Positions 3,001 to 63,454 of a stretch of 64,000 nt of DNA are shown in pieces. The translations under genes and the position numbers were made by a program. The notes beneath the pieces are model-generated. The model ran no database searches, had not been told where the DNA came from, and saw only the letters and a program-made list of their open reading frames with translations. The stretch's first letter is position 1; every line of letters starts with the position of its first letter. Where the stretch lies: the NCBI GenBank assembly GCA_000165345.1, contig CM000431.1, forward strand, positions 128,001 through 192,000, read 5' to 3'.

Positions 3001-6000
3001 TGTACCTCCTTAAATGAAAATTTAAGTCAGGAATTATCCCAAAAGGAATGGAACTTCTTCCTTCAGTTATCCCATAGTTTTCCTCTTCGAGATACAATCC
3101 CCAAATTTGTCTCATCCTCACATTCATCATCCTGAAGATGTAAAGATAAATCATGGAAGGATCCGATACTTGTCTAATTAAAGACTTGTTATTGAAATTA
3201 AAGAGTTCAATAAACATCTCAACTGAGGAAACTTTGTCAGGATCCGCATCATCAACAGATACTGATGGAATAATAAGCTTACTGTTTCTGAAGTTCATAC
3301 TTCTAAGAGGAACACATACATCTGAACCGCCTTCTATTTCTCCTCCAACTTTTTCCTGAGAAGGAAGAATAAGGGAAGAAGACTTTGATGATTTAACTAC
3401 TTCTGAATCCTTCACATTATCTTCTTCTAAATAATAAACAAAGCTCTGAATATTATCAATCAAGTACGAAAAGTAGTAAATATTGTGTAAAAATGCATCA
3501 AGAAATAAAACTAAAGTAATGTTCTCAGCCTCAACAAGCATCTCTGAACTTGAGATCATCTTTGATAGCCTTCCATGAATTAAATCTTCAATATCTTGAG
3601 CTCTCTGGTGAGAAATCATCTTCACCTCCATTATAGACGATTCCACTGAGCTATCCATCTTAAAGAAACACAAATCTTTCCTACCATTAACCATATTGTA
3701 TGCTTTCATCCTAATTACCCTAACAATAATATCTCTTCTTGTATCGTGATCACAGATTGATACCGTATTTTCAAATACTAACTTGAAAAACTCCGTATCT
3801 CTTTGAAATGCTACCAATTCAAAATTGCAAACATTAGCATCAATTAGGTACCTTGTCCACTTATCTGAAGTCTTTACTCCTATTTCTGAGCCTAGATCTT
3901 GGTCCTTTTTGGACTTAATCTCTTGTTCCGTACTTATATATGGTGAGGTAGTCCTTTTAAACAAACAAAGCAACTCTTGAAGAATTAATGGTCTCAAGTA
4001 AATAATAATAGACCCAATTTCCGTCCTAACCTGTACCTGATTGCTCTGAGAATAACCTGATCTGGATCTATTCAACCATTTAACTTTCTCATCCCTAGCT
4101 TTCTCAAGTGAAAGCTCCTCTTCAATGAAATGATATTGAGATGTTGGGAAACGAACAAAGCTAAAAGTGTTGCTGAGACTAAAGAGAGGAATTCTCTTGA
4201 TTCCTTTACACTCCTGGGATTCATCTTTAGAGTTAAGATAGCCTCCTTCTCTTTCAGCCTCTTTAATTCTCAAAAAATAATCCATGGAAAGCTGAGAAAT
4301 GGAAAAGTTAACCAGTCTATAGTGGTCGTGAATAAAGTTTAGGACTTGAATATCTCGTGTTCCCACATTCATCCAAGAATTATTATCTGATACAAAGTCA
4401 AATTTAAGACTATTTAGCCTTAAAAACCAAAATAACTGAATATTTAATCCAAGCTTAAACATTTTGAATTCCTTTTCTCTCGTCAATTTTCTCCCCAAAT
4501 TGAAATACTCACTTAAACATGAGTCATCCATCCATTGAATCATGTTCAAGTATATACTCTGGTAAACTTGAGGATCAAAATTGGATGTAATTGAGTTAAT
4601 TTGAATGGATGAGTAGATATTCTTAAGTACATCCCCAAGCTGAATCTCACCAATTGAACCTCCTCCAGTAGGTTTTGAATCCAAGCAAACAGAATTTGTT
4701 GATAGTACCAAATTCATGAAGGATCTCTCCTCGAACAAATCCTGGGAAAATGGATCTAGCTGAGTTAGTACGCCAAATAGCTTAATATACTTCATCCATG
4801 TCTCATCCAACATATTATACCTCTTGTATGATAAGAGATTCAACTTGATATCAATATAGTCAATGCTAAATAATCTATAAGAATTAACCATATCTACTCC
4901 TTTTGGAAGCTTTGGTGACCTTTTTTCACTCTTTCCTGACTCTCTCCTGTGAATATTGCTGGTATCTTGAATTCTAGCTCTGATTTTTTGTTCATCTTTC
5001 TCTATCCCAGTTGTTCCAGACTGGAAATCACTATAAATAGATAAATAGATTTCCTCAATCTTGGCATAATAACAGAGACTCTGAATACATTTAAACCAAT
5101 AAGTTGACTTTTCAGAAAGAACATATCTATAATATGGAGATACTTGAATGCCTCCCCCTACTCCTTTATTAATGAATGACTGAAGGTCAAAGCTGTTATT
5201 TTCAAATCTACTTTGGGGGCTTGAAATATCTAAAGAACTCTCCTCAAGTTCATATCCTCTCAAGATCTCTGAATCATTGTTAGATATTGAAATCTTTCCA
5301 AAACTTATTACATTGTAAATCGCACCTTCTAGTCTTGGATCTACCTTATGACAGAAAACCAAGATTGGAGTTTCAATTTGAATATCCACATCCATTAAAC
5401 CTGAATTTTGAAGAAATCCATCTCCTTGACTATTAATATCTCTTTTTTCTGAAATATCAGTTGAACCACTTTCGGTACAGGCCATATGATTATCTATTCT
5501 AGTCTTGGATTTATGTTTAATACCTTCTCCTCTACTTTTTCCAATACTCTTATTATACTTGTTAATTGCATTAACTAAAGCAGAAACAACGTTGGAATAA
5601 AAGATTGCATAGCATTTCTCAACGTTGATCTTAATAGTAGTTTTGCTACTTTCTGGAAATGAAGTTTCTAATCTCTTTGAAATGCTTCGATCCATAGAGA
5701 AATCAGAACTCATACTCAAAGAACTTCTCCTTCTGGAAGACCCTTGTACGTTGCAGATTGAGCTTTTTTTATTCAAGTAGTAGAATGTGAACCACATCTT
5801 TTCATCCTGTACGAGAGATTCATCCTCGTAAATTATTTGAAACCTCTCCTCATCTGGATCTGAGTAATCCAAATTAAACTCTTGTAAAACCGATAATAAA
5901 GAAATTCTTGAATCTGATTGAATGAATTCCAGACCAAAACTTCTCAAACTTCCCATCAAAGCACTTCTTTTGATCATCCTCAATCCTTCCTGTCCATCGA

Positions 6001-8877: not shown

Positions 8878-11268
8878 TTATCTGCTTGATTCTGAGTAAA
8901 AAAAATCATGATATTTAGGGCTCTTTAATACTGCTTGTTTCTGAGTTTGAGGCCTCGTATCATATCCTAAGTTAATATTTCTTCCAGAATGAAGTTGAAG
9001 AGTGTTTGCCTGTGACTGAGCTACATAATATGGTATAGTTTTTTCTGCTTCTCCGCCTTCACCTGAGTTCATATACTCAGGAGAGAACGTTGTATCCTCC
9101 ACAGAAACTATACTTTTTTTCTCTGGTGGAGCTATGTTTGAATCATAGCTGATACTTTTTTGGCTCATATGTACAATTTTTGACCCTTTTCTTGCTAGAA
9201 TTGGTTTTATTGAAGCAAGTTGCAAACTATTTAGCTTATTCCTAATTATTTCCTTGTTTGAATTGTCCACATTTTGAGCAGATTCAGTATCATCTGACCT
9301 TCTTCTCAAAAAGAAGACGCAACAAAACATTAATATAAGCAGAATCAATAGAATTCCAATAACTACCCCAATGATTAACTTTTTATTGACTGTTCGTTCT
9401 ATTACATCAAAATGCCCTTCTATTGACTTTTCCATCTTTACCTGCCCTGCTTCATTCAAATAACTCAATTCTTGGGTTTCTTGTGGATCATCGCTTTCAG
9501 AGTTAACATACTCTCCTGCTCCAAATCCCAATAATGAGTTTTCTGCCTCTTTATCAGAATTCATATCTATAATCCCAGAGTCCCTCTTGACTATGTTATT
9601 GCCTGTCAAAGAATTTGAGTTTTTTTTCACATAGGCGCTAGTCCTCACATTCTCTGTCTTTGGAGTATAGAGCGACTTTCCTGTAGTGTAGAATCGTGGC
9701 CTAAGAGTGGTTGTTGTGTTTTTAGTTGCTGTAGTGCTTTTCTTTGTGGTTGTCGTTTCTGTTGTTGTGGTTGTTGTTGTTGTGGTTGTGGTTGTGGTTG
9801 TGGTTGTGGTTGTGGTTGTTCTCGTAGTGGTTGTTGTAGTATTTGTAGTGGTGGAGGTGGAGGTATGTTTAGAACTGTTAGCAGGGTTATTCTTAGTGAA
9901 ATCATTATCAGAGGAAGTTGTGGTATTCGGGAATACTACTCCTTTAGAGGAAATGGTTGAAACATTACTTGAATAAACTTCTTCAACTCCTGAATTTCTC
10001 CCAATTGAAGAATAGTCTGAGAAAATAGGTTTTGTAACAGGAACCAATATATCTTCAATAGAGTCAGAACTCTGCTTGTAGATCATCTCCTCCAGGGTAT
10101 CGTTTCTTTCTTCATTCGCACGCCCGGATTCTGTACTATCAGACTCAAAACTTCCAGATGAGCTTCTATCCAAAGGATGGTATGTTGGTTGAGCGCTTAA
10201 ACCAATGAGCTTCATTTCATCAGACAAAGCTGGAATAGTACCTGGATCCTGATCCCAATAAAATGTTTTCTTCTGCTTATACCTTGGAAGATCCAAATAA
10301 GAATTATGGTAAACTTGGTCCCCTCCTTCGTTAGTTGAATCCTCTTTCCAGTTAAAGTTGATACTAGGAAAGTTTAACGAACTCTGATACGAGCTCCAAG
10401 CTGAGTCCAGGATATTTGAGACATTTTGACAAAGACCAACTGATAAATTATTCTCCCAAGCATCTGTACAGTTCAAATTATTGTAACCTGGAAGATCAAG
10501 CTTTGGCTCTTTACTAATAATTTCATCAGTCTGCTTAATTAGCTCTGAATATTTATTGGGATTCAGCCCACCAGAATCATAAGCTACTGTACCACAAACT
10601 GCACAAGAAAGCTCAGAATCTATAAGCCAACACGGCCTTCTTCCTAACCCTCCAATATCAAAAAAGCCACACTTTTCAAAGGGAAATTTGAATCTTAATA
10701 ACCAGCTTGCATTATAACTTGATGTCCAATTAATTTCAGAATCTCGAACTGATACGGGACTTCCACTATCTATCCAGTACCATCCTGGCGGATACCTGAA
10801 AAATGCATACTTTCTAAGTCCGACAAAACATCCATTTGCAGTCTTATGAATATCCCCTTGTTCCACAAGAGTTCTTCTGATTGCTTCTTCATCTGATAAC
10901 TTATATACTGAAGCCAATGTTACTGGGTACTCATTGGTTTCTTTAGACCCATTTCTTCTTCTTGTCTCTACTTCAGTTCCACCTAAATCATTGCAAGCCT
11001 TAAAACCGTGGGAAAATGTCCTAGGCCGGTCAAAAGTGACCAGCTTGAAACATCTTGTTTTCTCACCATTTGAAATCCATCCTTCCGGACAATTTGCATG
11101 GCCAGTATCTCCTAACTTGCTAACTTCTCTTCCAAAAACCCCAGAAACTACTATTAAACTTAATAATACTAAATTTGCACAATAGTGATTTGCCTATTAA
11201 ATTATATTAGACGCTACCGAGTCAAACATACCTATTAAACAATCCTTTAATTCATTAATCAGCCTCAT
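8878..11268 (-). CDS. C-type lectin domain mucin-like type-I membrane glycoprotein (CpClec-like). Two exons: 11268..11232 and 11168..8878.
   Basis: Track ORF 8878..10917 begins with a TTG translated as M, and the frame stays open upstream to 11168. The upstream part reads ...VLLSLIVVSGVFG|REVSKLGDTGHANCPEGWISNGEKTRCFKLVTFDRPRTFSHGFKACNDLGG...LASVYKLSDEEAIRRTLV...CFVGL...WYWIDSG...CGFFD..., a CTLD signature. It is followed by a poly-Thr mucin stretch, one TM helix (IIGVVIGILLILLILMFCCVFFL) and a cytoplasmic tail with YxxΦ-like motifs. No in-frame ATG lies before the upstream stop. A candidate exon 1 (ATGAGGCTGATTAATGAATTAAAGGATTGTTTAATAG, MRLINELKDCLI) ends at a GTATGT donor. A 63-nt intron ending TTTAG joins it in phase to exon 2 (1+2291 nt = 764 codons), giving signal peptide MRLINELKDCLIVLLSLIVVSGVFG. 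Confidence 0.7.
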
Positions 11269-11406
11269 ATATTACAAAATCCCTCTATATTCATTGGTTT
11301 CTCCTCAAATACTTACTTTAGTGACTTTTCCCCATTATACTCAAATTCTTATATTTGCATTTTGCATGTTCATATTTTTTCATATACCGATAGTTTTATT
11401 CAAAAC

Positions 11407-11418
11407 TTTGGCGCCAAA
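11407..11418. promoter_or_regulatory. Palindromic E2F-like motif TTTGGCGCCAAA in the 181-bp divergent promoter between the CpClec-like and Cet1-like genes.
   Basis: Exact TTTGGCGCCAAA. The same TGGCGCC core recurs in most intergenic promoters of the window. Confidence 0.55.
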
Positions 11419-11449: not shown

Positions 11450-12827
11450 ATGAGAAACAAAGAGATGGGGAAAACTAATCTTGACGAGTACGAGTTAATT
11501 GTAAGTTTTCTTATACAATTTTTTGCTTCAATAGTTAATTAACTTCTAATATTACTAATAGGATGGCTCATTTTCAACGGGATGTAGTCAGGAAATTGAG
11601 TTCATTGCACAGTCTTTGGTTGATCTAGTCGAGGCTTCCCCTGAGCTTTTAAATATGGATGGGAAAGTTGATTTGGAGGTAAGTTCCTTTATTAGTTTGT
11701 TTCTTGGAGCTTCTCAATAACTTCCTTTTATTTAATCACCGTAAATCTGCTTTGATCACTAGGTTGAAGGACGTATTGGGACTTTAATTAATGAAAATAC
11801 AAAGGAGAAGGTTTTACTCCCTGTGGAGGGAATGTGTTTGCTACTTCCAAGTGAAAAAGAGTTCTCCTACCGTTTTTCTCCTGGTTTGGAAAAGTGGCAA
11901 ATGACAAGTGTTGTAGAAGAATTAAGAAAGGATTTTGACGAGTCAAAAATCCCTTATATTATCAAAAATAGGAATACAAATGACTACTATGTTCATAATC
12001 CGAATAAATCAGAAACAGAAGACAAATCACTAATTAGATTAAGTTATATTTCTCCAAAAAATCAAAAAGATAAACCAACTGAAGCGATATGGAAGGAAAA
12101 GATTGCAGTCTTTGATTTTTGCTCTCCAGGCCAGCCTGGAGACTTGGAGACCAAACACAATATTGAGAATGGTACATTGCTTAAGGATTTCAGAATTGCG
12201 ATCAACCTTGAACATAAGGAGAATCCTATCGAAGTTGCCAATACTGTTACTGGTCCAATTGAAAATTCATGTGTTTTGGAAAGAAGAAGAGAAAGAGAAA
12301 CCGTAGAAGTTTCAAATTTTGTTCTAGACTCTACTCATGTGGTACAGATTGAAAGTCGCAGGGGATTTAGGCAATGCGAAACTTATGAATTAGAACTAGA
12401 GCTTAAGCCTTCCCACTTTATTCCTCTATTAAAGTCTTATATAGAGGATACAAACAATGGGAAATTGAAAGTAATAGGAACTCATCCTTTCATTAAGCTA
12501 CTTACCAACTTTGTTAATTTGGTGTTTGGAATTACTCTATTTCTCAATAACAAAAAACCAAATGAACAAATCGAATCTTCTATTCAAAACTCATCTGGAA
12601 ACGAAAACCAAATTATGGATTTAACAAGTTGTACTCAATCCAATGAAATAGTCCAAGCCTTCAAAAAATACGTCTCACCCATTACTCCTATACTCGGAGA
12701 CTATTTATATAGAGCCGTAGCTAGTGAGAAGCAGAAACTTAACAGACCACAAGATATTATTTGCAAGGATGATATAGATATTTCACTCGGAATTAAGCCT
12801 TTACCTCCTGATACTAAAGAAATCTAA
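11450..12827 (+). CDS. mRNA-capping RNA triphosphatase (Cet1/triphosphate-tunnel metalloenzyme family). Three exons: 11450..11500, 11562..11678, 11763..12827.
   Basis: ATG at 11450. Both introns have GTAAGT donors (11501, 11679) and AG acceptors (TAATAG|, CACTAG|), and both are in phase 0. The spliced N-terminus reads MRNKEMGKTNLDEYELI|DGSFSTGCSQEIEFIAQSLVDLVEASPELLNMDGKVDLE|VEGRIGTLINEN.. and carries the TTM beta1 ExExR motif (LEVEGRIG). A C-terminal YELELELK resembles the second metal-binding ExE strand of Cet1. Track ORF 11823..12827 is only exon 3 (GTG shown as M). Confidence 0.55.
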
Positions 12828-56389: not shown

Positions 56390-57660
56390 GATTCCTACTA
56401 CTTTATTACCACTACTTTTACTACCACTAATATTACTGTTACTACTACTACTACTANTACTAATANTANTATTATTATTATTATTGGTAATACTANTTTC
56501 AANACTATTACCAATGATAATTCAACAAATAGCNTCAGCTGTTTATAGTATTAATATTANTTCAAANCTTTTAATTCCATTNNCANCCATTTTNATCCAT
56601 TNCATTCTCTCTATTCCCCTCTCAANAAGTGGATTTATGTAATAACTTTAATAAGTTCGTTATATATCGAAANATAAATGTGTATAATCNTTGTACTATT
56701 GTTCGAGCATATTAGCAAGAATTATATTAAACTGGAAGAGAAATAGTAGAAGAAGAAAGTANGNATAGAGAATGAGTTAGAATTTGATAGTATGTCCAAG
56801 ATTTAGTTTATATTTCTATATTATACAANTAAAATCTATGAATTTTACTAGTTATTTTTTCTANGNTTATAGTTATTTTAAAGTTAAAATAAAATCTTTT
56901 ACTTGAAAATTTTAACATATCTCATATATTCTATTTGTTTTATNCACNAGATTTACTTTCTNATGTTATATTACTANTCAATTTTTGAAAATGCGAATAT
57001 TNTATTNGATACATGCGATTTGCATGCATCCACATAAATTCNCGNNATACCGTTTAAAGAAATATGGTAATTACGTGTCAATTTTTCTNTTTGAATAATN
57101 TTAATGGTATTTTTAATAGTATTANTATAANTAGTAGAAATTGTATTAAAAATTAGAAATGTTAGTGTGAATAAAGATATTAATANATTATTATTAGTAG
57201 AAATAAGTGGAAAACAAATAGTACTAAAATTGTAATTATTCNGATTAAAATAGTTTTTTTTTTTANTTTTTTAAATAAATAAAAAAACTTAAGTTAAATA
57301 TTAGATTTAATAATTAAATAAATGGGGTGGATACATATAATTTTANTNTTTCTAATCAATAATTTAATGATTAAGNACATGNAAATAAGTGTAGGTTATT
57401 TATTGATTANATTAAATTNTTTNGATAGTTNTTATNTTCANTTCCTNNNNNNANGNNTCTTTAGTAATTGATTTCCAGAAGAGATTTCCTGAAGTTGGAG
57501 TGTTNCGAAAATCTTGATAATTATGGACTCATAGTNCTNTNNTNNNNANTANTATNATTANNATTATCGNCAATATNNTCANGATTNNCCNNCTGTTNNN
57601 GCTCGNATNACNGTNGGTANAACTATTGNCTTNANNTNCATNTNNNANNNGTATATTTAC
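56390..57660. repeat. Low-complexity TAC/ATT microsatellite region containing many N characters (unresolved or low-quality assembly stretch).
   Basis: (tac)n/(att)n runs such as ctactactactantactaatantantattattattatt. Scattered N positions run from about 56457 to 57660, and dense N runs at 57447-57460 and 57540-57650. Confidence 0.7.
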
Positions 57661-59701
57661 AGTATTAGCAGTATCCTCAACTCCAAGTGAACTAACAGCT
57701 AAAGTTGTGGAAAGTCTTAAAATTTCATTTGGATTATTAGAAGCAGTTTCCAATTTAATATATGCAAATAATGAGATATTACTTTGTACTAGATCAATAT
57801 CAATAATAATTTGATTTTTATTTAAAGGAAATAATTCAATTGGAATTTTAAATTTTGAAATAGTACCTACAAAATCATTACTTTTCTTTTTATTTACTAT
57901 TTTATTTTCTCCAATTAATCCTTCTTGATTATTGAAATATTTTTTTATGTTAGTTTGTATAGTTGTAGTTTTTTTATTATTTACATTAATAGCTTTATTA
58001 ATTCCATCTAAAGTAGCTTCCATAAATAATGGTAATTTATTTGTATTCGTATTATGACTAATATGTGGAGCTATATCATCTAATAATTTATTTACCAAAA
58101 TAATTTCGTCTTCATTTAATATTAGAATATATCTCTGTGTTCCATCTTCACTTGATGTTATATTATACATGATAAGATAATTATCTAAATCAAAAGAAAT
58201 TTGTTCTTGTTTTGTTGTGTTAATACTTTCAAGTTTTTGATTATTATAATGGTCATCAATTAAAATATGATGACGTTTTTTATGTGGATTTTTTGTATTG
58301 ATTCCAGTATTATTTACTGAATTTATTTTCATTTGATCTTGATTGGATTGTTCTTCTATTTCATTTTGATTATTTTTTATGATCGTAGAGTTGTTTGAAT
58401 CATTAGTAGTATTTGAAAGAATAGTATTATTAAAGTTATCAAATTGTGTAGAATTTTCTGTAATATTTGTTATAAAGTTTGATTCTTTGAAATATTCCTC
58501 AGTATTATTGTTTAAAGATAAGGCATCTTTTGTTTGATTGGTTACTTTTTCCTGTAAATCTTTGATTTGAAGAAATTCTGAATTTGTTTGAGTATTTTTG
58601 TCCAAGGGTATTCCTCCATTGATCAAATTTCCAATATTTGCAGGAATGGTCGTATTTGCGGTAAAGTTACCAGTTGAAGAGCTTGAATCTTTGATTTCAA
58701 TTTTTTCTTCTTGTTTGTCCTTATTTTCTTTTTTCTCACCCTCCTTTTCTTTCTCACCCTTTTCTTTTCTTTTCATCCTCTTTTTCGGTCTTCTTCTTTT
58801 CTTCTACCTTTTCGTCCATCTCTTTTTTATCCTTTTCTTCCTCCGTTTTCTTTTCGTACTTCTTTTCATTCTCTGCCATCTTTTTATCCTCCACCTTCTT
58901 TTCGTCCTTTTCATTCTCTGTCTTCTTTTCATCTTTCTTTTCATTCTCTGTCTTCTTTTCTTCATCCGTTTTCTTTTCTTCCTCCGTTTTCTTTTCGTCC
59001 TTTTCATTCTCTGCCATCTTTTCATCCTCCACCTTCTTTTCGTCCTTTTCATTATCTGTCTTCTTTTCTTCATCCGTTTTCTTTTCGTCCTTTTCATTCT
59101 CTGCCATCTTTTCATCCTCCACCTTCTTTTTGTACTTTTCATTCTCTGTCTTCTTTCCTTCCTCTACCTTCTTTTTTCTCTCCTTTTCTTCCTCCATTTT
59201 CTTTTCGTCCTTCTCCTTTTCGTCCTTCTTTTCATTCTCTGTCTTCTTTTCATCATCTGTCTTCTTTTCGCTCTTCTCTTTCTCCTTCCCTTGTATTGGG
59301 TTGTATATCTCACTATGTAAATCTATATTTGCAGAATTTTTGATTTCATTTCTCTGATTATTTCTCAGTGATAGTTTTGCCTTAGAAATTGAGGAAGACT
59401 CAGAAATTTGTGTAGAATTATCGTTACTAATCAATGAAAATTCTGTCTTAATATTTAAAACTACTCCCTGTTGTATATTGCTTTTCAACTTTAATATTCT
59501 TCCACTGCATGATTCTCCTATTGTATTAATTTCACAAACTTGATCATTATTTTGCTTTTGAGAATTTTCAATCTCAGCTATTTGATCTTCTGCTAAAATC
59601 TCATAATTCTCCAATCTAACGCTTTCTGATAACCAAACAAAGCTAAATATTACTAAAATAGGAAGAAATAATCTTCCAAACTTAATTATATGCATTTTCA
59701 T
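57529..59701 (-). CDS. Secreted protein with a signal peptide, KE-rich 15-aa tandem repeats and an N/T/S-rich C-terminal region. It is split by an apparent frameshift near 58754-58776, and its 3' end runs into the N-containing gap.
   Basis: Track ORFs 58754..59701(-) and 57529..58776(-) are adjacent, overlap by 23 nt in different frames and share composition (..KKTEKEDEKKRKG* / MKRKEKGEKEKEGEKKENKDK..). The N-terminal MKMHIIKFGRLFLPILVIFSFVWLSESV is a signal peptide. The shift lies in gaaaagaaaagaaaaggg. The downstream ORF ends inside the N-rich region, so the true 3' end is unknown. Confidence 0.5.
58740..59285. repeat. Coding tandem repeat with a 45-bp unit in two alternating variants (90-bp super-unit), encoding EKKVEDEKMAENEKD / EKKTDEEKKTDNEKD on the minus strand.
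   Basis: Repeated ...cgtccttttcattctctgccatcttttcatcctccaccttctttt / cgtccttttcattatctgtcttcttttcttcatccgttttctttt... The plus-strand ORFs 58598..59320, 58711..59343 and 59130..59357, and the minus ORF 58804..59142, are alternate-frame artefacts of this repeat. Confidence 0.75.
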
Positions 59702-61396: not shown

Positions 61397-63454
61397 ATGG
61401 AAGAGAAAATCGACAGGAAAGATTTTTTCTCAGTAGAGCTTGAAAATGGACAAGTAGAACCTGAATCATCTCCAATATATAGAAATCCTAGTTATTCTAA
61501 AGGTGAATTATCAAATTTACAAGGTTTAAATGCAAACAATTTATGGGAACTATTTGTAAATTCTGTAAATAAATATAAGAATAAAAAATGTCTTGGAACA
61601 AGAAAACTAAATAGAGATGGAACTTATGGAGAATATGTATTTAAAAGCTATGAAGAATTGAAAGAAGAGGCTTTAAATATTGGTATTAATATTTTAAAGA
61701 TGGATTTATGCCCAATAAGAAAATATGAAGATAATGAATATCAAAAAGAAATTAGTATGATGGGTATATTGAGTAGAAATAGAGAAGAATGGTATTTAAC
61801 AGAACATGCATGTAATGCATTTGGAATTTGTTTAGCTCCTTTATATGATACTTTGGGAGAAGATAATTTAAAATTTATACTGGTGCAAACACAATTAAAA
61901 AGTCTATGTATTTCAAATGATAGTTTAGAAAAGATTATATCAATTATTGAAAGATCTATAATTGATTCAACCAGAGATTCAATATTAATAAAAAATTTGA
62001 TATGCTTTGATCATCCAACAACAGAAATTAATCAGAGAGCTAAGAATTTAGATATTAATTTGATTTTATTCAAGAATTTACAAGAAAAAGTCAGTAAGAA
62101 AGATAAAGAAATATACAAACCCAAAAAAATTAAACCAGATGATATGTGTTCAATACATTTTACATCGGGAACTACTGGATATCCAAAAGGAGCAATATTA
62201 ACACATCGTTGTTTTTTAGCATGCGTAAAAAGTTCATATGAACATTTATTTTCAGAGAAAGAAATACAATTAGATAATGAAGATGCACATTTATCTTATC
62301 TTCCAATGGCACATATATTTGAAAGATTAATTGTAATGAATGCTTATTATTTGGGAATACCAATTGGTATATTTAGTGGTAGTGTAACAAGATTAATGAG
62401 TGATTCACAAGAATTAAAACCAACAATATTAGTTTGTGTACCACAAGTCTTAACAAGAATTATTCAAACAGTTAATGATAAAATTAGTCAATCAAACTTT
62501 TTAGTAAGAACAGTATTTCATAAAGCATTGAAACAAAAAGAAAGTATTATTAAAACAAAAGGAGATCCAACACATTGGTTATGGGATAGAATTATTTTTA
62601 GTAATACAAGACAGATATTAGGTGGAAAATTGAAAGCTATAATAAGTGGAGCAGCACCATTAGGTTTAGAAGTAAATCATAAAATACAAGCAATTTTTTG
62701 TTGTAAATTAATTGAAGGATTTGGTATGTCAGAATGTATTGGTACTTTAGGTACAAGATATTCATATGCACATTTAGGTACTGTTGGTGGTCCATTTAGT
62801 GATGTAGAAGTCAAATTAACATCAGTATTAGAAATGGGGTATGATTCAACAAAAGAACCAAGAAGAGGATTATTAAAGATAAGAGGTAACAGTGTATGTA
62901 AAGGTTACTTTAGGGATATAATCAATAGTAAAGAATTGATTGATAGTAATGGTTGGTTAGATACTGGTGATATAGCAGAAAGACAACAAGATGGCTCATT
63001 TAAGATTATTGATAGAAAGAAATCATTATTTAAATTGTCTCAAGGTGAATATATTTCACCAGAAAGAATTGAGGGAATATATTTATCATCATCATCATTA
63101 ATTCAACATGTATATGTATATGGTCAATCAACTGATAGATTTTTAGTAGCTTTAATATTCCCAAATGAGCAAGCATTAAGAAAATGGTCGGAAGATAAAG
63201 GAATGAATACTTTATCATTATCTTTGGAAGAATTATGTGAATCTCATGAATTATTTGATGAATTGAATGATTCTTTTCATAAAGCTGAATTAAGTTCAAA
63301 TTTATTTGGTTTTGAGAGAATACATAAATTTAAAGTAATTCCTGAGGTTTTAAGTACTTCAAATGGATTATTAACACCAACTATGAAGATTGTGAGAAAT
63401 AAAGTCAATTCAAAGTATAAGGAAGTTTTGAATACTTTAAGATCACAAATTTGA
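61397..63454 (+). CDS. Long-chain fatty acyl-CoA synthetase (AMP-binding superfamily).
   Basis: AMP-binding motif I HFTSGTTGYPKGAILTHR, motif II EGFGMSECIG and motif III DTGDIAERQQDGSFKIIDRKK. The 685-aa length is typical of eukaryotic LACS. Confidence 0.9.
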   Translation: MEEKIDRKDFFSVELENGQVEPESSPIYRNPSYSKGELSNLQGLNANNLWELFVNSVNKYKNKKCLGTRKLNRDGTYGEYVFKSYEELKEEALNIGINILKMDLCPIRKYEDNEYQKEISMMGILSRNREEWYLTEHACNAFGICLAPLYDTLGEDNLKFILVQTQLKSLCISNDSLEKIISIIERSIIDSTRDSILIKNLICFDHPTTEINQRAKNLDINLILFKNLQEKVSKKDKEIYKPKKIKPDDMCSIHFTSGTTGYPKGAILTHRCFLACVKSSYEHLFSEKEIQLDNEDAHLSYLPMAHIFERLIVMNAYYLGIPIGIFSGSVTRLMSDSQELKPTILVCVPQVLTRIIQTVNDKISQSNFLVRTVFHKALKQKESIIKTKGDPTHWLWDRIIFSNTRQILGGKLKAIISGAAPLGLEVNHKIQAIFCCKLIEGFGMSECIGTLGTRYSYAHLGTVGGPFSDVEVKLTSVLEMGYDSTKEPRRGLLKIRGNSVCKGYFRDIINSKELIDSNGWLDTGDIAERQQDGSFKIIDRKKSLFKLSQGEYISPERIEGIYLSSSSLIQHVYVYGQSTDRFLVALIFPNEQALRKWSEDKGMNTLSLSLEELCESHELFDELNDSFHKAELSSNLFGFERIHKFKVIPEVLSTSNGLLTPTMKIVRNKVNSKYKEVLNTLRSQI

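Follow-up and report, generated by a model that had tools for sequence, protein, structure and literature searches.

The question raised by this locus, which lies on the minus strand of a 64,000-nucleotide stretch of DNA (hereafter the window), is where the translation of a long lectin-type reading frame begins. The open frame of the main exon extends upstream only to position 11193, and its first in-frame ATG was found at 10215 (residue 331 of the product described below), which is 3′ of the lectin domain; the preliminary description had stated that this frame reaches an upstream stop without any in-frame ATG, which holds for the part upstream of 10215. A start codon is supplied in the model by a short upstream exon. 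The coding part of exon 1 (11268..11232, minus strand; 37 nt, ATGAGGCTGATTAATGAATTAAAGGATTGTTTAATAG) opens with the ATG at 11268..11266 and contains 12 codons (MRLINELKDCLI) along with the first base of the Val13 codon. It is followed by a 63-nt phase-1 intron (11231..11169, minus strand; GTATGT...AAATTTAG) with an A+T content of 68% and two in-frame stops, TAA TAG, at 11202..11197. Exon 2 (11168..8878, minus strand) comprises 2291 nt, including the TAA at 8880..8878, and encodes residues 13-775. The coordinates proposed earlier for the ATG at 11268 and for the 37-nt exon with its GTATGT donor were correct on the minus strand, and so were the coordinates and the arithmetic of the 63-nt intron, the TTTAG end of which rejoins the frame; the spliced coding sequence of 37 + 2291 = 2328 nt is open and corresponds to 776 codons, that is, 775 amino acids and a stop. 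The spliced product begins with MRLINELKDCLIVLLS..., and its N-terminus reads MRLINELKDCLIVLLSLIVVSGVFG|REV across the predicted signal-peptide cut, or MRLINELKDCLIVLLSLIVVSGVFG|REVSKLGDTGHANCPEGW in the longer form. When the exact 775-aa product was searched for in a collection of 15 billion proteins, no match was obtained. As 63 equals 3 x 21, exon 1, the intron and exon 2 all share one frame, and an unspliced message would terminate after 23 codons at the in-frame stops of the intron; since no other AUG is present before the lectin domain, splicing would be obligatory.

All upstream ATG, GT and AG combinations were listed, and 67 formal ATG/donor/acceptor models were found to restore the frame without a stop; the frame-restoring arithmetic alone is thus not significant in such an AT-rich stretch. 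Among the donors of these 67 models, the one at 11231 was the sole donor with the GTAWGT consensus, and its combination with the acceptor at 11169 was the only pair conserved across other species. The comparison was carried out with eight sequences, namely the window, C. meleagridis, chipmunk genotype I, C. canis, C. felis, C. xiaoi, C. ryanae and C. andersoni. Exon 1 was exactly 37 nt long in all eight and was followed by GTAAGT, GTATGT or GTAAGA; the intron was in phase 1 in each of them, and the junction codon was invariably Val (G|TA or G|TT) with a hydrophobic run next to it. The intron lengths, measured to the first frame-restoring AG, were 63, 63, 63, 50, 50, 60, 61 and 77 nt, so that the length was not a multiple of three in four of the eight species; an intron of exactly 63 nt, in frame with both exons, was found in the parvum/meleagridis/chipmunk clade. 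This conservation of exon length, phase and junction Val bears out the exon/intron model of the preliminary description. At the level of sequence, the cross-species comparison provides decisive support for the intron, and the two-exon model, with its 37-nt exon and 63-nt GT-AG phase-1 intron, is very probably correct; we infer the splicing itself from these alignments.

Could the same ATG and donor be joined to a different acceptor, or the same ATG to a different donor? An AG at 11151 or 11148, giving an intron of 81 or 84 nt, would preserve the frame in either case, and the GenBank model of C. xiaoi uses another, poorer donor located 21 nt further downstream; in all such arrangements the hydrophobic core of the signal peptide would be shortened or altered. 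Against this, introns of 81 or 84 nt would cost six to seven residues of the hydrophobic core, the alternative donors do not carry the GTAWGT consensus, and the AG at 11169 is preceded by a T-rich tract and retains both its position and the junction Val in 8/8 species. We regard a shifted splice site as very unlikely.

Still less probable is a start at another place, which would be either one of the upstream ATGs at 11294, 11335 or 11383, reached through a different intron, or a non-AUG codon within exon 2. Formal GT-AG models do exist for the three upstream ATGs, and several species share the one at 11294, but the donors that these ATGs would require (GTAATA, GTCACT and GTATAA) are poor and not conserved, and the N-termini of the orthologues (MRLINEL..., MKFLR..., MMINSF...) all begin at the site homologous to 11268. 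Furthermore, the frame opened at 11294 is a 9-codon upstream ORF (11294..11265, minus strand) that terminates at a TGA overlapping the main ATG (ATGA). An upstream ATG at -23 to -26 was kept in five other species, with no conservation of the uORF peptide, and this uORF is a possible element of the 5′ leader. Further upstream, a GGCGCC palindrome (TTGGCGCCAA) at 11410..11415 lies in the spacer shared with the divergent neighbour gene; it was found 139-155 nt 5′ of the start codon in seven of the eight species and may represent a promoter element. This divergent upstream neighbour is the mRNA triphosphatase gene, which has two short 5′ introns of 61 and 84 nt, while the gene downstream is VPS13. 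The spacer had earlier been given as 181 bp, a value counted to an ATG at 11450; the start of the neighbour gene for which C. meleagridis, C. canis and C. andersoni show both annotation and conservation corresponds to 11465, and the correct spacer is 196 bp.

The pattern of substitutions also distinguishes the intron from its flanks. The intron was 82.5% identical to that of C. meleagridis, against 97% for exon 1 and 95% for exon 2; with chipmunk genotype I, identity was 75% for the intron, 92% for exon 1 and 91% for exon 2. In exon 2, 24 of 29 substitutions (C. meleagridis) and 43 of 53 (chipmunk genotype I) fell at third codon positions, and such a third-position pattern was absent from the intron in the same two comparisons. 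The notion that there is no intron at all, and that the two stops found in the window stem from sequencing errors or indicate a pseudogene, can call on a length of 63 nt that is divisible by three and in frame with both exons, and on the read-through in two independent C. meleagridis annotations, but its likelihood is practically negligible: read-through meets stops or a frameshift in seven of the eight species and is open only in C. meleagridis, intron lengths of 50, 61 and 77 nt do not fit a whole number of codons, the intron segment diverges faster than the adjoining exons and lacks codon periodicity, purifying selection acts on the remainder of the gene, where third positions take most of the substitutions, and reading through would move the hydrophobic core about 33 residues away from the N-terminus.

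With the two-exon model, the domain layout described earlier for the product, in which a CTLD, a poly-Thr region, a transmembrane segment and a tail with a YxxΦ motif follow a signal peptide, was found to be present. The product contains just two hydrophobic segments, one at the N-terminus and the other at residues 610-633. The hydrophobic core of the signal peptide and the predicted cleavage region are encoded at 11131..11168 (minus strand; VLLSLIVVSGVFG|RE), with an N-terminal Kyte-Doolittle peak of 2.1 (19-residue window); V at -3 and G at -1 satisfy the cleavage rule at VFG|RE, where the signal peptide is predicted to be cleaved. The intron splits this signal peptide in such a way that exon 1 encodes the charged n-region and exon 2 the hydrophobic core together with the predicted cleavage site. 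The earlier statement that exon 1 carries the start codon and the signal peptide thus holds for the start codon, whereas only the n-region of the signal peptide belongs to this exon and the rest is located in exon 2. The poly-Thr mucin core is encoded at 9706..9870 (minus strand; about residues 446-500), and Thr and Ser together make up 71% of residues 431-500; a tandem repeat with units of 6, 12 and 18 nt at 9744..9864 encodes the poly-Thr region. The transmembrane segment (LIIGVVIGILLILLILMFCCVFFL; 9307..9378, minus strand; residues 610-633) is the only internal hydrophobic peak, reaching up to 3.4 in the 19-residue Kyte-Doolittle window. It is followed by a cytoplasmic tail of 142 residues, in which YHDF (8902..8913, minus strand; residues 765-768) is the sole YxxΦ motif; YH[DE]F was kept in the aligned orthologues.

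The lectin domain itself (10594..11091, minus strand; residues 39-204, CPEGW...CAVC) was not recovered by direct comparison. No match to Pfam PF00059 Lectin_C was obtained at E <= 10 with the window protein and eight orthologues; among PDB sequences, phmmer found nothing beyond a marginal hit to echicetin A (E 0.53), and the search with a full-length profile produced noise from the transmembrane segment. On the other hand, an exhaustive search with a domain profile detected 13 distant relatives (E 1.5e-15 to 5e-4), and nine of the ten that were tested passed the Pfam Lectin_C gathering score over the aligned region. An AlphaFold2 model of the domain, built from a 17-sequence alignment that included the distant relatives, reached a pLDDT of 82.5 and a pTM of 0.84, as compared with an unusable model (pLDDT 35) from the nine Cryptosporidium sequences alone. 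When the predicted model was compared with the PDB by Foldseek, ranks 1-20 were all CTLDs (E 7e-6 to 5e-3, probability 1.00), including DC-SIGNR, snake-venom C-type lectins, DEC205, CLEC4D and TC14; the best match was CRD4 of the mannose receptor (7juf_B; E 7e-6, target-normalised TM-score 0.75). Cysteines 39, 52, 71, 126, 179, 192, 201 and 204 were invariant across the 17 sequences, and the same was true of the GLR within CFVGLR and of W and D within WYWID. The Cryptosporidium domain carries an insertion of about 19 residues after the first helix relative to the distant relatives, which may be the cause of the Pfam miss. We thus take the domain to be a divergent CTLD, as judged from intermediate homologues and the predicted fold; the same evidence upholds the CTLD assignment of the preliminary description but not its wording of a "textbook" domain, the domain being divergent and without a Pfam Lectin_C match. 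The motifs EPN, QPD, EPS, EPD and WND were not found anywhere in the protein. If binding is Ca2+-dependent as reported, the Ca2+/sugar site would be non-canonical because EPN/QPD and WND are absent.

To which gene does this structure belong? With the spliced product as query, a single protein was obtained from each of seven further Cryptosporidium species or genotypes (from two isolates in the case of C. canis), and most of these orthologues are named "C-type lectin containing protein"; none of the hits came from C. parvum or C. hominis. Identity to the C. meleagridis protein of that name was 86% over 100% of the query; it was 82% for chipmunk genotype I, 60-62% for C. canis and 42-43% for C. 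xiaoi and C. ryanae, with 98-100% of the query covered in each case, and 72% for C. felis and 52% for C. andersoni over about half of it. In all seven loci fetched, the genes follow one another as GSHPx, LisH, mRNA triphosphatase, Clec, VPS13, and the window matches this order. There appears to be one Clec gene per Cryptosporidium genome, in conserved synteny. Two Logan contigs encoding the C-terminal 256 aa were also found, one (L008) 99.6% identical to the window (same species) and the other (L009) 97.6% identical (sister species); both end at the poly-Thr repeat and leave the 5′ end uncovered. These two identity values are consistent with the C. parvum / C. hominis pair. The primary papers on CpClec are those of Bhalchandra et al. 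from 2013 and of Ludington & Ward from 2016. CpClec is described in a review as a type I membrane protein (PMC7477959), and its Ca2+-dependent binding has been reported experimentally (PMC12688253). A single review gives its gene id as cgd3_440 (PMC12688253), an id that has been assigned elsewhere to CpPRP1 instead (PMC8710574). Full-length similarity to the orthologues, synteny and domain layout support the CpClec-type identity put forward earlier, and with high confidence we consider the locus to be an orthologue of CpClec, or CpClec itself, from the C. parvum / C. hominis group.

Public gene models were then compared with the two-exon structure. The same 37-nt exon and phase-1 intron are present in the GenBank models of chipmunk genotype I (KAH8584552.1 / XP_067202263.1), C. 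canis, C. ryanae and C. andersoni (cand_034120), and the N-termini of these four models match the spliced translation exactly. The exon is therefore "unannotated", as the preliminary description had called it, only with respect to a mechanical ORF list. The orthologue N-termini, which had been suggested earlier as a check, gave a divided answer: these four agree exactly, whereas the models of C. meleagridis, C. xiaoi and C. felis differ. In C. meleagridis, the stop-free intron is read through in both assemblies, which carry independent annotations; in C. xiaoi, the downstream donor mentioned above is used; and in C. felis, the start is placed antisense within the first exon of the neighbour gene, although in this species a 37-nt exon (ATGAGATTTACAAAGTTG...) followed by a 50-nt intron yields a normal signal peptide. 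The 5′ ends of the public models of these three species are probably misannotated. The published CpClec model, in turn, almost certainly contains the 37-nt exon, because a type I protein needs a signal peptide and here it would be reachable only via exon 1. The gene cgd3_440 figures in the supplementary material to the reannotation of C. parvum only in a dN/dS table, which gives no exon information. The gene and its two-exon structure are thus already known, and the present result amounts to a correct gene model, not to a discovery. Its discovery value is small, the gene being a characterised Cryptosporidium adhesin; its value for curation lies in the probable 5′ misannotations in the records of three sister species. 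It also illustrates that prokaryote-style ORF calling on this genome loses short first exons, as happens at this locus and again in the mRNA triphosphatase gene next to it.

Taken together, the following course of expression may be proposed. The AUG would come from exon 1, along with the charged n-region of the signal peptide, and the spliceosome would remove the 63-nt GT-AG phase-1 intron; exon 2 would then contribute the remainder of the signal peptide with its hydrophobic core and cleavage site, the CTLD, the poly-Thr stalk, the transmembrane helix and the 142-residue tail with YHDF. The poly-Thr stalk would be O-glycosylated in the manner of a mucin, YHDF would serve as a sorting motif near the end of the cytoplasmic tail, and the protein would bind to sulfated proteoglycans of the host cell in a Ca2+-dependent way; the glycosylation and the binding are taken from inference or from the literature. 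CpClec is reported to be expressed in a stage-specific manner. It is conceivable, though improbable, that the in-frame 63-nt intron and the upstream ATG together form a regulated switch operated by intron retention. If so, a retained intron would cut translation of the window gene short after 23 codons, and in C. meleagridis it would place 21 additional residues inside the signal peptide, and either effect could tune the stage-specific expression of CpClec.

As far as known systems are concerned, no difference was found between the window gene and CpClec, the two being compared by description only. In comparison with the GenBank orthologues, the 37-nt exon, the intron site, phase 1 and the junction Val are the same, whereas protein identity ranges from 82% down to 42%, the intron varies from 50 to 77 nt and the length of the poly-Thr region also varies; the C. 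andersoni gene has at least one further intron (a gene span of 2142 nt for a 641-aa product). Unlike the CRDs of animal C-type lectins, the domain has no direct Pfam Lectin_C match and no EPN, QPD or WND, it carries the insertion of about 19 residues, and its identity to them is only 15-23%. Nevertheless, the predicted fold is the same as that of animal CRDs such as mannose receptor CRD4 and DC-SIGNR (target-normalised TM-score 0.72-0.75), and the domain shares with them the long-form cysteine pattern, the WIGL-like CFVGL and WxWxD.

Among the public models for orthologues of the C-type-lectin mucin gene (CpClec type, minus strand of the window), the 5′ ends look misannotated in C. meleagridis (positions 3001-3140 of its orthologous locus, L001), C. 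xiaoi (L005:3001-3140) and C. felis (L004:3001-3420). In both C. meleagridis entries (KAK9173347.1 and POM84430.1), the stop-free 63-nt intron was translated as coding sequence, and the C. xiaoi model used a weak donor, A|GTCATT, passing over the conserved G|GTAAGT. For C. felis, the modelled start falls on the antisense strand of an exon of the neighbouring gene; a 37-nt exon followed by a 50-nt intron gave instead MRFTKLFESYFFVFLSFFLSSGTFG. At the other end of the gene, the C. canis models terminated prematurely and lacked the KSPKYHDFFYSE tail.

The divergent neighbour (11450-12827, plus strand) was identified as an mRNA triphosphatase gene, with PF02940 (Pfam) found in the orthologues. Its 5′ part was interrupted by two short introns of 61 nt (11501..11561) and 84 nt (11679..11762), which separate exon 1 (11450 or 11465..11500), exon 2 (11562..11678) and exon 3 (11763..12827), all on the plus strand; only 11823..12827 appeared in the mechanical ORF list. 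The ATG at 11450 was confined to the window species and C. meleagridis, and the start at 11465 was the conserved and annotated one.

Inside the 181/196-bp spacer of the two divergent genes lies a GGCGCC palindrome (TTGGCGCCAA, 11410-11415), which was located 139-155 nt 5′ of the lectin start codon in seven of the eight species compared and was not found upstream of that codon in the remaining one, C. andersoni. This palindrome may be an E2F-like promoter element common to both genes. Closer to the lectin gene, an upstream ATG 26 nt 5′ of the start codon opens a putative uORF (11265-11294, minus strand) of nine codons (MNIEGFCNI), and the TGA that closes it shares bases with the main ATG (ATGA). 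C. meleagridis, chipmunk genotype I, C. canis, C. felis and C. xiaoi likewise have an upstream ATG, at -23 to -26; the encoded peptide was not conserved across the species keeping it.

Within the lectin gene, the poly-Thr region (9744-9864) was a 6/12/18-nt tandem repeat with GTTGTG units on the plus strand. Its length varied among species, and both Logan assemblies of the locus ended exactly at this repeat. Elsewhere in the window, G+C dropped to 0.19-0.23 between 56000 and 62000, against 0.31-0.37 in the rest, and this part still carried long ORFs (57529..58776, minus strand; 61397..63454, plus strand).

One review (PMC12688253) attaches the gene id cgd3_440 to CpClec, but a second paper (PMC8710574) attaches it to CpPRP1, a rhoptry protein; one of these assignments is presumably erroneous.

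Distant relatives of the lectin domain (P0012-P0024) share the arrangement seen in the lectin: a signal peptide, a CTLD, a Thr-rich region and a TM. These relatives came from Vitrella brassicaformis (CEL94247.1, CEL98353.1), Rhytidocystis pertsovi and Siedleckia nematoides, and further ones from unnamed transcriptome or Logan contigs; the matches to the domain included no Plasmodium or Toxoplasma protein. Given this distribution, the architecture seems to predate Cryptosporidium.
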